Shown here in pieces: positions 25,962 to 60,702 of a DNA stretch of 64,000 nucleotides (positions within the stretch are counted from its first letter, which is position 1; every line of letters begins with the position of its first letter). The notes under the pieces were generated by a model. It saw only the letters and a list, made by a program, of their open reading frames with translations, made no database searches and had not been told where the DNA came from. A program made the translations under genes and the position numbers. Source of the DNA: Eledone cirrhosa (Eukaryota); NCBI GenBank assembly GCA_964016885.1, contig OZ024743.1:54188001-54252000 (forward strand), in the 5' to 3' direction.

Positions 25962-26160
25962 CGTAGGTCCCGGGTTGAGTCGGGGATAACCACAGTAAGT
26001 AAGGTACTCAATACATGGCAGAGTAAAATTTTTTATTTTATAGAAGGAGCTTCTACAGGACTAGTACTGTTTCATTCAGATGAAATCTTCAGGAAGCCTG
26101 GCTTCCTGAAGATTTCATCTGAATGAAACAGTACTAGTCCTGTAGAAGCTCCTTCTATAA
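25962..26160 (-). mobile_element. Penelope-like pLTR fragment with fold-back palindrome, in (TA)n
   Basis: Perfect 61-bp arms 26038-26098 and 26100-26160 with a 1-nt loop. Contains a hammerhead and is flanked by (TA)n on both sides. Confidence 0.75.
26101..26149 (+). ncRNA. Type I hammerhead ribozyme (mirror copy on - strand at 26049-26097)
   Basis: gcttc CTGAAGA t-ttc-atct-gaa-t GAA ACAG tactagtc CTGT A gaagc: 5-bp stem I, 4-bp stem III, GUA cleavage triplet. Confidence 0.8.
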
Positions 26161-26177
26161 TATATATATATATATAT

Positions 26178-26760
26178 ATACGATATATTAACAAATGGAA
26201 ACTATATTTATAAAACCATATTTATTTGATTATACATATTTCAAGGACACCAAGTTAAATTATGGTGTGCTTTCATCAGATAAAATATAATATAGAGCAG
26301 TTTTATAAATAAATATTGACATACCCTTAAAGAATGCGACCATTTCTGTTGGAAACACCCGGATATTGGGGTTACAACTTTACTTATACTATTATGTAAA
26401 TTAGTTTCGGAATTTTTAAATCAGTGTAGATTTAAATATGCCGAAACTAATTTACATAATAGTATAAATAAAGTTATAACCCCAATATCCGGGAGCTTCC
26501 AACAGAAATGGTCGCATTCTTTAAGGGTATGTCAATATTTATTTATAAAACTGCTCTATATTATATTTTATCTGATGAAAGCACACCATAATTTAACTTG
26601 GTGTCCTTGAAATATGTATTATCAAATAAATATGGTTTTATAAATATAGTTTCCATTTGTTAATATATCGTATTTTTACTCCAATAATTTGTTGAGTGCT
26701 TTATATCAGTTATAAAAATATTTGCTTGTTGTATCTCAACAATTTAAATAGAACTTCTAC
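26178..26760 (+). mobile_element. Penelope-like pLTR fragment with ~245-bp inverted arms, in (TA)n
   Basis: Arms 26178-26422 and 26429-26673 with about 8 mismatches and a 6-nt spacer. The right arm continues ~85 bp to (TA)n. Hammerhead in each arm. Confidence 0.75.
26564..26628 (+). ncRNA. Type I hammerhead ribozyme (mirror copy on - strand at 26223-26287)
   Basis: tattttat CTGATGA aagcacacca-taatttaact-tggtgtcctt GAA AT atgt AT (T/A) atcaaata: stem II 9/10 paired, stem I 7/8 paired, minimal stem III. Confidence 0.7.
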
Positions 26761-27174
26761 ATATATATATATATATATATGTCTGTGTGTCAGCCACGTA
26801 AGGACATCACATCACCCGTCATTCACCAAGAAAGTTCTGGTGTGGAATGGGTTAGACAGTTTGTTGGCAACCATCCAACCATGATGTTTACCTGTCCTAC
26901 AGTTAACGTTCTGCAACGTTTGAAGACTTGATGACGTCCATCATTGTCGGTGTTTCATGTAGTGGTTGTTGTTGTTATTATTGCTGGTGTTATTATGATG
27001 GTTATTGTTGTTAATGTTCTGTCTATTGATGCTTCATATTCTGTAACGTATATGCATCCATCTCTCTCTCTCTCTCTCTCTCTCTCTCTCTCTCTCTCTA
27101 TATATATATATATATATATATATATATATATATATATATATATATATATATATATATTATATATATATATATGT

Positions 27175-27362
27175 GTGTGTGTACGAGAGGTATGTATGTT
27201 TGCTTGATATAAAGATTCTGAGAGAGGGGCGAGAGAGAGAGAGTCAGAGTGAGAAAGATATATATATATATATATATCTTTCTCACTCTGACTCTCTCTC
27301 TCTCTCGCCCCTCTCTCAGAATCTTTATATCAAGCAAACATACATACCTCTCGTACACACAC
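27175..27362. repeat. Near-perfect palindrome centred on (AT)n
   Basis: gtgtgtgtacgagagg...gagaaag (AT)10 ctttctc...cctctcgtacacacac; the arms differ only by one GA unit. Confidence 0.95.
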
Positions 27363-27714
27363 TCTCTCTCTCTCGCTTTCTTGTATCTATTTTATGAAGG
27401 TGATGATAGGAAACGCTTGCTATACTTATCTTTGTGACAACTTACTCTCTCTCTCTCTCTCTCTCTCTCTCACTCTCTCTCTCTCTCTCTCTCTCTCTCT
27501 CTCTCACTCACTCGCCCCTCCCTCTCGTTCTATCATATGAATGTACGGATGTTATAAAGGTGGTGATAGGAAAAGCTTGTGGTATTCATTTTGTGACAAC
27601 TGACTGACAGCTGCTCAGCTTGATATCACACATCCTCTACAGAATCCAATTCTCTTACCACTAAAATAAATAGAAGATTCTATAGGAGGGCTTCAGTTTG
27701 TGTTTGTGTGTTGG

Positions 27715-56850: not shown

Positions 56851-56899
56851 GTAATCTCGTTTCCTCTTCTAAATCACACTCTGAGGTCTTAAAACATTG

Positions 56900-57150
56900 A
56901 ATGTTCATGGCTTCTTCTTCAGTCATCCCTCCATTGAAGGTGAAGTAGACACAACGTTCTTGTTTTAGACGTTTCGACCCCTCATTGCAGCAAGAAGATC
57001 CTGTCCAGTAAGGCCAGTGTCCCTCGCCTACAGACTCTTGGCGGTTATGTTTGGACGTCCCACTTGGTGCATTGTATCTGATGACCAGAGAAGCAGTTTC
57101 CTTGCATACTTATCATGGCGGAAAACATGACCAGCAAGAGCCAAGATCAA
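56900..57150 (-). mobile_element. RTE-like LINE 3' fragment
   Basis: The - strand translates to LALAGHVFRHDKYARKLLLW...VGRP. Confidence 0.55.
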
Positions 57151-60100
57151 CTGGATCAGGGCTGACCTGTATCTAAGTCATAGCCACAAACACAACAGCA
57201 ACAACAACACATAATACACACTGCTACACGAGAGTATCTCTATGTATTTGAATCGCTATACCTATAAACTCTTTGTAGTTACTGGGGGAAATGTGAAGCT
57301 GTGTTGGCTTAATAATTAGGGTGTTCGGTTCATGATCGTTGAGAGTTCCATTCCCAGAGACAAGTTGTGTTTTTGAGCAAGACAATTTATTTCACGTTGC
57401 TGCAGTCCGGTCAGCTGGAAAATAAAGATGTAGTAGATGTAATTGGAATAGCCAGTCTTATCACACACAGATCAGGCTGAATCTACCTTAGAATTACGTT
57501 AATGCTGCACATGTTTGTAGAATGAAGAGCAAATTGCCTGGAAAAAATAGCTATGTCTGTAATCCGATGCATTAGCCTTGTCACACAATGTGTCATGCTA
57601 AATCTCCCCGAGAACTACATTAAATGTACACGTGTCTGTGGAATATCCATCCACTTGTATGTTAATTACCTACAGATCCAACAACAACAACAGATAAGAT
57701 TAGTAAAACTATTATTTTAAATTCAGCGGTATTTTGAAGCTATTTTGTTGATTGTATTATGGACTATATTAGCATGGGATAGGCTTAATTCAATTTTTTT
57801 TAATCACATGTCAAGAGCAAGCATGGCTATGTGGTTAAGGAGTTCACTTCGCAACACTGTGTTTACGGTTTCAGTTTCGCTGTACCTCAGCTAGTGTGTG
57901 TGTCTCAGACTGACAAATGCTTTTGAAATGGAATTTGGTAGATGGAAACTGCAAAAGATCTATCATTTTCTCACAGTTTGGCAGATTGTTTCTTGTGTAA
58001 GTTAAACATTTCTTTTATGTATTCGTTATTTGATTCTATATTTGCTACTCTGTCCTTGTGTATAAATGTTTTAAATTAATCGAAAGATTTTTGGCGAGTA
58101 ATCCAGTGTTTATAGCCCCCACAAATGTGTTATCTCAAAAGCGGTCTTCCTCTATTTTTGGAGTTCACGTGTCATGACAGCACTGTACTGCTAGAATTGG
58201 CGAGGCTAGTGTTGAGTATGGACGTGTTCAACTGAAGACCACTATGTTTGGATGGGATTGTCATGCTGATGAAGTGCAGCTTAGCCCGGTTGCATAATAT
58301 CTGCTGACATTAGACAATTCTCTGCATATAACACTTTTAATAAAAACTTTTATAGGCAAAATGTTGCGCAAAAACGGATCTATCCAGGATTATCTTCACC
58401 CAAGCACTACCATCTTACTTACTAAGCAACTGTAAATGTGTACTCTGACAACTGGTTTGCATTTACTCACGGTTCGAGAAAAATGTATCGATAAAATCAA
58501 TACCAAAATATTTACTGGGGTCGCCATGATCGACTAAATTCCTAAATAAATGAGTATGGGCCTGGTTGTTATCATTGAGTAATTTAAAAACTCAATAAGA
58601 TGATGACATTTTAACAGCAATTTAAAAAAAAAAGAAAAAATGGCCTTTATCTCCTGATGCTGTAGGAGCGTTGCCTTCACAAATTACGTGTCTTGGACAA
58701 TAAGAAGTTGGTGGATCCCATTCCTCTTCAGGTCAAAACCCAGCTGATTTATTCTACAAGGAGAGAGAGAGCGGGGGAGCGAGAAAGGGTGAGAGAGATA
58801 GGGTGGAAAGAAAAATCGACCTTAGAGTTTGACAGGTATTTTATGTATAGACCTGGAAAAGATGAAAAGTAGATTTGAACGTGGCAAGATTTAAACTCGA
58901 GGCGCAGTGAGCCATAACGTAAACAGAAGCCTTTATAATCGGATGCTCTAAATACGCTGAAAATTTTCCGCCACTAACAACACCTGTTGATAAAGAATAA
59001 CAGAAAACATACAAGATTCATATATTGACATTTTTCGTTAGGGTATGATTTCCCAAACATATATATCTTGCAACCGTAAACAACGCCAAAGCTACTATCG
59101 CCATTTTGCATTTTAGTAGCAACGATACCAGAATTCTTGCAGTAAATAGCATTCTGACTTGTTTCACTGTTTTATGTGAGTAGGTTTCCTTTATCGACTG
59201 GTGTCTTTTAATGAGGTTATCACAAATGGTTTATGTGTTTCCAGTGATATAACTAAGATATCTAACTATTTGCTTGTACCTCTTATCTTTTCCCCGATAT
59301 CAATATAATCTATCTGTCCGTCTATCTACCTATCTATCATTCATTCTCTCTCTCTCCCCTTCTCTCTCTCTCTCTCTCTCTCTCTCTCTCTCTCTCTCTC
59401 TCTCTCTCTGTATATATATATATATATATATATATATATATATATATATATATATATATAAAGCTATGTATGTCTGATTGTACGTATATATATGTATTTA
59501 CGAAACTGCTTACATAGCAACTTGTGTATAATCTATTAGTTACGAGATGGGTCTAGCTATTTGTTAGACTGTTGCCCTTCATCTGTCGTTTTCTATATAT
59601 CGACAAGCGCATATTGATATAATATTAAGAAATACACACACACACAAACACACACACAAACACATACATACACGTTATCTCATAAATTGTGTTATACATA
59701 TTTAATAATATTCTCTCGCGTTTGTAAATTCAATTCCAAATAAGTATCTACATATGTATGTATGGTCATGTGGTTTAGGGGTTTGCATCGCAACCACGTG
59801 GATTCTGTTGCAGTAACATTGCATGGCACTTTCTTTACGTAACACATATGGTATATTAACAAATATGTAAGTGTACATCCTCTTTGATTATCAGTCACGA
59901 TATGACATGTAAACAAATGGGAATTCATTTTGTTATTCATACACGGGGAAAGCTTTATATATATATATATATATACACTAATATGTATATATATATATGT
60001 GTGTGTAAGTATACAAACACACACACACACACATATATATATATATATATATATATGTGTGTGTGTGTGTGTGTGTGTGTGTGTGTGTGTGTGCGTGTGT

Positions 60101-60529
60101 GTGTGTGTGTGTATATACTTACACACACATATATATATATGTATATACATGTATATATACATATTAGTATCAGTGCCGAGAATAAGTAAGTGACATAGTC
60201 ACTACTTTAAAATTCATAGCGAATGTTCTTCAAAATGCCTTTAAATAAACATACAGTATATTATCAAATATACTATACATACATTCATATATATATTTAT
60301 ATAGTCCGGGAACCTTATAGGCACCCGTTTTACGTGTGTTGTGTTGAGGCAAATAACTATGTGTATACTCTGGTAATGTATCTTACATTGCCCATTGAGT
60401 GCGCTGAGATACAACCGGTACGGGCATTGATAAATATGCTGGGTCCGTCAACCCTTATTATATATATATAGGAAAAAGTATGACCCCCGACGGCAGAGCT
60501 CAAGCCGTTTCGATGGTTGTTCATATATT

Positions 60530-60572
60530 GTCAAAGTTCTTTCGTCACACATTATGTGACCTCTTCAGTGAC
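60530..60572 (-). ncRNA. Minimal type I hammerhead ribozyme
   Basis: On the - strand: gtca CTGAAGA g-gtcaca-taatg-tgtgac GAA AG aa CT T tgac. Lies in a ~185-bp insert between (TA)n tracts. Confidence 0.7.
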
Positions 60573-60702
60573 TGGGATTCTTTTCTTTGTTTTTGTGCCT
60601 GTCCTTTTTTCTGTCCTACGCCATCTTGTTTTTGTTGCTAAACAAATTCAGAAACGATATATATATTATATATATATATATGTGGGTGTGTATGTATGTA
60701 TG

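Follow-up and report, generated by a model that had tools for sequence, protein, structure and literature searches.

Predicted hammerhead ribozymes beside TA repeats in Eledone cirrhosa probably belong to truncated Penelope-like elements and to short non-coding tandem repeats

The window of this study is a 64,000-nucleotide stretch of the Eledone cirrhosa genome (OZ024743.1:54,188,001-54,252,000), on the chromosome labelled C4 of a 3.0-Gb assembly. A first-pass annotation had proposed nine type I hammerhead ribozymes in it, set in 0.2-0.6 kb non-coding units beside (TA)n microsatellites. We find a type I hammerhead or a decayed copy at all nine coordinates (26101, 26564, 33376, 34905, 37989, 43441, 45057, 45824, and 60530), those at 34905, 45057, 45824, and 60530 lying on the minus strand. 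Each locus tested belongs to a separate repeat family, named A to I in this order (Table 1), which bears out the proposal of many distinct ribozyme families. The count of nine holds with a reservation: six loci pass a tolerant motif descriptor, and at the remaining three the copy is damaged, whereas other members of its family pass. The copy at 37989 (family E) has a stem I mismatch and a stem II bulge. At 43441 (family F), a G occupies the cleavage position and part of stem II is missing; the inverted partner carries CCGAUGA. At 45824 (family H), core G12 is A in the window copy only, the family copies having G. All three fail both the strict and the tolerant descriptor. Head-to-head hammerhead pairs occur in three insertions (families A, B, and C), adding minus-strand inverted partners at 26092, 26279, and 33230.

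Applying the strict type I descriptor to positions 24200-64000 (39.8 kb), we found 6 motifs, compared with a mean of 0.005 in 200 block-wise dinucleotide shuffles, none of which reached 6. The tolerant descriptor, which permits one stem II mismatch, raised the count to 9 motifs, spread over 6 insertions, whereas 100 shuffles averaged 0.01 and none held more than 1. The expected excess over shuffled sequence was thus obtained with both descriptors, which cover type I hammerheads. An Rfam scan of the window returned no hammerhead among 132 matches at E ≤ 1; the matches were dismissed as spurious miRNA and snoRNA hits on microsatellites and palindromes. The full three-helix form appeared in 0 of 10 minimum-energy folds, and the folding z-scores of the window motifs were modest. 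Forcing the full ribozyme fold costs an extra 2.5-7.9 kcal/mol in the six motifs tested, and stem III self-duplexes are favourable in five of those six. As modelled, this combination of a costly monomer fold with a favourable stem III duplex is what would be expected of dimer-type hammerheads of Penelope-like elements (PLEs). By their CUGANGA and GAAA cores, the NUH site, and three helices with an open stem I, we take the motifs to be real predicted type I hammerheads.

To compare copies, we searched the genome itself with each locus and scored 40 of 211-5,471 first-look candidates per search, so the results are not copy numbers; extracted genomic loci carry L-numbers. Homologues for covariation were gathered by BLAST and not by descriptor. 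In the B lineage, 15 of 17 representatives were aligned (excluding two that carry a deletion or duplication); 96% of the stem cells pair, and 14 cells show a double-sided change, a count reached in 0/500 shuffles. The D lineage (5 sequences) has 3 covarying pairs and 5 cells altered on both sides (12/500 and 1/500 shuffles, respectively). Kinship among the sequences inflates both of these controls. Judged by eye, stems also covary in A and H, and they vary little in C, G, and I. The core nucleotides are constant across subfamilies. The stem covariation foreseen among genomic copies is therefore present in the B and D lineages. Altogether, 284 distinct motif sequences from all loci fell into 37 clusters, some of which are splits of one family. 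In a tenth family, K, 5 of 29 loci tested hold a hammerhead whose stem II arm is about 80 nt long; both window copies of this family are 5′-truncated.

Longer genomic copies of four families lead into coding sequence. Locus L201 (family B) consists of an inverted arm, a hammerhead-bearing pseudo-long terminal repeat (pLTR), a 612-amino-acid open reverse transcriptase (RT) frame with RWR, DKT, and CxCx5C motifs, a second pLTR 4,091 nt later, and then (TA)n. All 29 oriented B copies tested map to the 3′ part of this element, with varied 5′ ends. Locus L416 (family A) has the same layout in a 4,251-nt unit, with a frameshifted open reading frame (ORF) beginning about 45 nt past the pLTR end. Of 22 loci with E relatives, 18 have RT and endonuclease (EN) remnants upstream in matching orientation. 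Long family I copies encode RT, a Cx3CxxC linker, and GIY-YIG. RT with a C-terminal GIY-YIG between pLTRs was seen in L201, L416 (frameshifted copies), L371-L375, and L381-L382. The A, B, and E proteins have DKT, the CxCx5C linker, and CxxC and CxH around the EN end; a frameshift interrupts the linker of L416, and that of the window E copy is decayed. Because DKT, CxCx5C, and CxxC/CxH match the clade definition in PMC8557442 (section 11 and Fig. S7 rows), we place A, B, and E by these motifs in the Hydra clade of PLEs. Family I is Nematis-like by its motifs, being closest by eye, without a tree, to the Nematis linker rows; its frames gave a GIY-YIG match (PF01541) above the Pfam cut-off and RVT_1 below it. 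Thus, the loci at 26101 (A), 26564 (B), 37989 (E), and 60530 (I) do not represent the mini-elements first supposed: they appear as truncated ends of 4-kb-class coding PLEs, so the description as non-coding units was wrong for these four of the nine families and stands for C, D, G, and H. The suggested link to PLEs and retrozymes agrees with the RT/GIY-YIG frames of the former and the tandem monomers of the latter.

Separately, a 735-amino-acid open Hydra-type RT plus GIY-YIG frame, 5′-truncated, lies at L204 5440-7644 (minus strand) and in L195-L200, within a duplicated block on C4 at 204.2-204.7 Mb. Its protein search gave 28 relatives at 33-40% identity, none with a clade name. An assignment of family K to this ORF was rejected, the loci being one duplicated block with the ORF 5′-truncated behind a TA run; likewise, TA runs lie between family H and the RT ORFs of L142/L143, and that assignment was rejected too.

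Copies of families C, D, G, and H form head-to-tail repeats that contain no ORF, with one type I hammerhead per unit. The tandem periods are 322-327 nt (C), 543-557 nt (D), 455-470 nt (G), and mostly 399-435 nt (H). A D array on C12 shows 44 units or part-units in three 10-kb stretches spanning about 68 kb, and 13 of 19 D units in L218 pass the descriptor. By their sequence organization, these four families (33376, 34905, 45057, and 45824) are non-LTR retrozyme-like. They also share the PLE insertion marks, namely inverted arms, tails, and TA ends. It is likely from this analysis that these short repeats use PLE enzymes in trans. As an observation apart, three runs of one sample show a far greater summed contig depth over window 45570-45934 (H) than over the neighbouring G, which hints that H copies are very numerous, although depth is not a copy count.

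The marks of PLE-type insertion (5′ truncation, partial tandems, an inverted 5′ arm, and an optional tail) recur across the families. Inverted partners were found in 14/30 loci for G, 14/30 for D, 15/30 for H, 9/30 for B, 5/30 for I, and 3/22 for E. Comparing short with long arms gave tails of 87 nt (B), 38 nt (C), and 40 nt (H). The 3′ ends lie within 25 nt of (TA)4+ in 33/33 copies of A, 15/18 of B, 22/25 of C, 17/17 of D, 16/17 of G, and 44/49 of H, or 147 of 159 copies pooled, against a background of 8.3%; in these counts, the H monomer has an internal TA run and the queries stopped at these ends. (TA)n lies within 60 nt in 10 of 22 E loci, and (TA)5+ follows shortly past the family end in 30/30 I loci. 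Performing the same kind of comparison without family queries, we took sixty evenly spaced 10-kb stretches as a genome sample (600 kb). Here, (TA)6+ lies within 200 nt downstream of 9 of 11 strict motifs (background 13.9%, p = 8e-7) and upstream of 4 of 11, which confirms the claimed enrichment beside (TA)n.

In tandem copies (L416, L201, L218, L220, and L030), the element's own sequence past the genomic 3′ end is TA-like over 3-6 nt in A, B, and D, and less so in C and G. Because of this TA-like sequence in A, B, and D, priming may proceed by short homology to nicked (TA)n, unlike the report on the PLE PAc.

The genome sample held 34 tolerant motifs, compared with 0-2 in each of 10 shuffled sets (0.5 expected); 17 of the 60 stretches had at least one, and two had five. 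The claimed density of one locus per 4 kb is right for the window and too high for the genome, where the sample gives one motif per 18 kb. The window is about 4-fold above the genome average, and its TA content is ordinary (5.2% versus 4.4%). The sample suggests about 170,000 motifs genome-wide (Poisson range 118,000-237,000, the true range being wider owing to clumping and non-random spacing). Two further observations come from the same stretches. Hammerheads of several further families cluster at 3-5 per 10-kb sample in L363, L364, L356, L352, and L329, and the smaller chromosomes are richer (23 in 240 kb versus 11 in 360 kb on C1-C4).

In summary, we consider it well supported, with a probability of about 85%, that the loci are truncated PLE insertions (A, B, and E Hydra-type, I Nematis-like) together with short non-coding tandem repeats (C, D, G, and H) likely sharing their enzymes, with the predicted hammerhead near the 3′ end. 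The features behind this reading are family membership, covarying stems, 3′ ends fixed in (TA)n, and inverted arms that are shorter by a 38-87-nt tail. Published PLE work supplies a route: AT-rich DNA is nicked by a PLE nuclease, RT begins at either of two positions within the RNA, separated by the length of the tail, and the main template is uncleaved RNA (PMC11167929). Carried over to these families, the GIY-YIG nuclease would nick (TA)n, and RT would begin internally, at either of two RNA sites 3′ of the ribozyme, copy through the uncleaved ribozyme, and halt early; two such early-stopped copies would then be joined head to head. The 3′ ends fixed past the cleavage site, the long and short arms, and the intact ribozymes in DNA would then be accounted for by this route. 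PLE enzymes would copy the non-coding families in trans, and the ribozyme would likely trim multimeric transcripts to unit length, as a predicted dimer or with protein help.

Several observations weigh against this account. No autonomous partner is tied to C, D, G, H, F, or K, whose 1.5-kb flanks hold only scattered, often opposite-strand PLE fragments. In L201, L416, and L202, the RWK motif is replaced by RWR. The B (4,091-nt) and A (4,251-nt) units, with their long 3′ untranslated regions (UTRs), exceed the length of less than 3 kb published for the Hydra clade, a length that is descriptive and not diagnostic. A Pfam search of five Hydra-type frames gave no match, and A, B, and E were placed by motifs compared by eye and not by a tree. 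The B lineage has 3 covarying pairs, a number not above shuffles (326/500). In PAc, hammerhead cutting needed protein and was not required for insertion (PMC11167929).

How else could the loci have arisen? Nine independent non-coding mini-retroelements would fit the window copies, which measure 0.1-0.6 kb and lack an ORF except in E, and would fit the non-coding tandem monomers of C, D, G, and H. That longer genomic copies of A, B, E, and I run into RT/GIY-YIG ORFs refutes it for these four, and we regard it as very improbable. A weightier alternative, though still an unlikely one, is that the hammerheads are passengers or relics, and that arrays such as that of D grew as DNA satellites without a functional circular RNA. 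Three of the nine window copies are damaged, the full fold carries the energetic cost given above, 8 of 9 Xenopus retrozyme dimers stayed uncleaved in vitro (bioRxiv 10.64898/2026.07.22.740005), and PAc inserted without need of cleavage (PMC11167929). Against it, the constant core and covarying stems across subfamilies suggest that the source elements were under selection for their RNA fold. Random hits in AT-rich repeat DNA might seem to suit the absent Rfam match and modest z-scores, and are refuted by the motif counts (window: 9 versus 0.01; genome sample: 34 versus 0.5), the families, and the covariation; we give them next to no weight.

Within the preferred reading of PLE insertions and dependent repeats, family A shows an additional signature at its 5′ ends. 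Its long arms were selected for a match from stem I to the tail and were hence free to extend upstream. Among them, 23 of 26 begin 4-7 nt upstream of core C3, at the first base of the 6-bp stem I. Two diverged A subfamilies have a TATAAA that begins 35-38 nt upstream of C3, and TATAAATA stands 29-30 nt before the first stem I bases in long A copies, being kept in the second subfamily despite its diverged spacer. A TATA box typically lies near -30 from the transcription start. Junction fillers differ among A copies, so the copies represent separate insertion events. Judged by eye, the genome sample contains six A-like insertions, all of this short form, and the bystanders comprise 3 short and 3 long. 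Since A copies are 99-100% identical over 133 nt, the family looks in part very young. On this sequence pattern, it is rather probable that transcription of family A begins on the first base of stem I, driven by a TATA box in the pLTR as predicted promoter. From its priming site in the 5′ pLTR copy, RT would then have about 140 or 65 nt to copy before the RNA ends, which would give a 200-bp ribozyme-only palindrome. The wider proposal, for which we see roughly even odds, is that in a young Hydra-clade PLE a TATA-driven start on the hammerhead's first base and RT run-off from the capped 5′ end mass-produce such palindromes in TA repeats, and that together with retrozymes this makes about 100,000 hammerheads. 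On the other side of the ledger, at least 40 long A copies exist, the pile-up occurs in A only (5′ ends of B, C, D, G, and H are scattered, though their queries favoured long copies), and an extra G before the A 5′ end in 18 of 28 copies is confounded by templated filler.

Weak 5′-end clusters were noted elsewhere (H 260-274, D 464-468, I 55-74, and B 72-89) and may be alignment or query artefacts. The loose family I cluster, 55-74 nt upstream of the core, lies near AAGATGGCG, a motif we presume to be YY1-like; it could mark a second start site or be an artefact of the query. The family F palindromes likewise join near stem I, but there the query itself is a palindrome.

Two other origins of the family A pile-up deserve weighing. 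RT stalling or fold-back self-priming at the ribozyme, with its AGCT palindrome at the stem I border, is the more serious and still doubtful: at many A junctions the arms are symmetric or share the 4 nt of the AGCT palindrome, and palindrome self-priming has been proposed for PLE inversions (PMC3846280). But the GATTC subfamily, without AGCT, ends at the same place, single-arm copies start there too, other hammerhead families show no stem I pile-up, and TATAAATA is kept at -30 while the spacer diverges. We hold it to be quite unlikely that the conserved CAG directly preceding stem I acts as a 3′ splice acceptor and that the copies derive from processed RNA. The CAG is kept in both subfamilies, and an intron end of the D. 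virilis Penelope maps to helix I (PMC4209133); yet no constant upstream exon is joined to A copies, and the junction letters vary. A putative TATA and initiator (Inr) in PLE pLTRs were noted earlier (PMC3846280). For a pLTR start site at the ribozyme, nothing specific was found in the literature searched, which leaves out most subscription papers.

Table 1 Hammerhead-bearing insertions annotated in the window, with predicted ribozyme features
Feature	Position	Strand	Description
Family A long arm	25962..26098	-	3′ end of 4.25-kb Hydra-type PLE; hammerhead core 26092-26086, cleavage predicted after 26054; ~90-nt 3′ tail to (TA)n
Family A inverted short arm	26101..26160	+	Hammerhead core 26106, predicted cleavage after 26144; stem III ACAG/CUGU, loop containing ACUAGU
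Family B inverted short arm	26181..26422	-	Hammerhead core 26279
Family B long arm	26429..26761	+	3′ end/pLTR of 4.09-kb Hydra-type PLE; hammerhead core 26572; H17 is U here, A in family
Family C inverted arm	33094..33316	-	Hammerhead core 33230
Family C long arm	33318..33570	+	Hammerhead core 33382, stem III AUGCAU; part of 323-nt non-coding monomer
Family D arm	34844..35173	-	Hammerhead core 34981, stem III ACUAAUUAGU; part of 550-nt non-coding monomer
Family D short inverted fragment	35170..35231	+	Terminates in (TA)n; query 1-60 matches opposite strand of other copies
Family E inverted arm, decayed	36687..37115	-	68% to 37719-38104
Family E arm	37120..38110	+	Decayed Hydra-type linker and GIY-YIG coding remnant ~37130-37600, then 3′ UTR, damaged hammerhead 37989-38073
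Family F	43383..43493	.	Old head-to-head pair, both hammerheads damaged
Family K 5′-truncated copy	44321..44580	-	Only hammerhead 3′ half left, GAAACUCGAGUC at 44492-44481
Family G partial tandem	44980..45559	-	466-nt non-coding monomer plus 120 nt; hammerhead 45134-45057
Family H copy	45570..45934	-	~420-nt non-coding monomer; hammerhead 45864-45824, G12 to A
Family K 5′-truncated copy	60303..60470	+	Begins 4 nt before cleavage site
Family I fragment	60511..60635	-	Minimal hammerhead 60572-60530; 3′ pLTR of Nematis-like PLE, 3′-truncated here

The rest of the window is repetitive as well. A 23-kb satellite fills 827-24148 (82-bp unit, 288 copies, 94% matches), and outside it lie retroelement debris and microsatellites. 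An element with a 624-amino-acid first frame and a 942-amino-acid RT frame, which we take to be L1/Tx1-like, spans 49147-54459 (plus strand), with older partial copies at 24313-25470 and 46727-48646. The 3′ part of a restriction-endonuclease-type long interspersed nuclear element (LINE) with a zf-RVT match, presumably R4/Dong-like, lies at 60784-61944 (minus strand), and decayed LINE fragments that we assume to be RTE-like lie at 28889-30614 (minus strand) and 62233-64000 (plus strand). A family resembling short interspersed nuclear elements (SINEs) has at least 7 copies (28283-28473, 36257-36656, 39029-39256, 43258-43374, 44681-44864, and 62180-62286), including one inverted pair at 36353-36656. 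A near-perfect 188-bp palindrome without a hammerhead is centred on a TA run at 27175-27362.

The kind of element found here is known, and the families look uncatalogued. Among the octopus and cephalopod hammerhead and Penelope literature searched, from which most subscription papers were absent, only PMC8557442 was relevant. An octopus repeat annotation (PMC13282606) lists Penelope families, and its main text contains neither 'ribozyme' nor 'hammerhead'; it may hold these families as unlabelled consensus sequences. Rfam and Pfam miss these elements, and standard annotation would miss them too. For the part that the hammerhead plays in PLE mobility, family A offers a compact test case, with putative promoter, ribozyme, two RT start sites, and start codon within about 230 nt. 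Its genomic copies indicate that the template was uncleaved when copied. If the start-site model is true, the genomic hammerheads would naturally record where PLE transcription and RT begin and when the ribozyme acts.

Hydra-clade PLEs, including an octopus member, are known to carry hammerheads and to target (TA)n in nearly all families (Craig et al. 2021, PMC8557442). Families A, B, and E share with this clade, including Hydra-1_Obim, the C-terminal GIY-YIG, DKT, CxCx5C, and CxxC/CxH at the EN end. Also shared are a type I hammerhead near the 3′ end with a stem II basal mismatch and a short near-palindromic stem III, the (TA)n targets, the inverted 5′-truncated arm, and the tail. They differ in having RWR and not RWK, 4.1-4.25 kb with long 3′ UTRs and not less than 3 kb, and several high-copy families. 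No window hammerhead matches the Hydra-1_Obim row of File S2 by eye, and the accessible part of that paper offers no counterpart to the TATA-to-stem-I pile-up of family A. Family I shares with the Nematis clade (PMC8557442 Fig. S2; PMC4209133) the short Cx3CxxC..C linker, GIY-YIG, and a minimal hammerhead with a 4-bp stem I, an extra base 5′ of stem II, and a 2-bp stem III. Its stem III AGAACU is non-palindromic, and Neptune is a further candidate, the placement being made without a tree.

The non-LTR retrozyme layout has been described (Cervera and de la Pena 2020, PMC7229834), and a 2026 preprint derives retrozymes from PLE pLTRs (Li et al. 2026, 10.64898/2026.07.22.740005); the present lineage is not covered in the accessible parts of these papers. 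Families C, D, G, and H share with the metazoan retrozymes the non-coding tandem monomers, one type I hammerhead per unit, and the range from partial dimers to long arrays. In contrast, their monomers reach 550 nt, and they have long stem II inserts, PLE-style inverted arms and tails, and strict (TA)n ends. Many dissimilar hammerhead families per genome with a palindromic helix III, mostly single or as opposite-strand pairs 100-700 bp apart assigned to truncated PLEs, have been reported, as for Schistosoma (PMC4209133). The pattern here is similar, but we estimate about 1e5 hammerheads compared with about 2,000-9,000 there. The Hydra clade and the non-LTR retrozymes are thus extended to a genome where they are abundant, diverse, and partly very young, and what goes beyond the published pattern is this genome-wide scale and the candidate start-site signature of family A.

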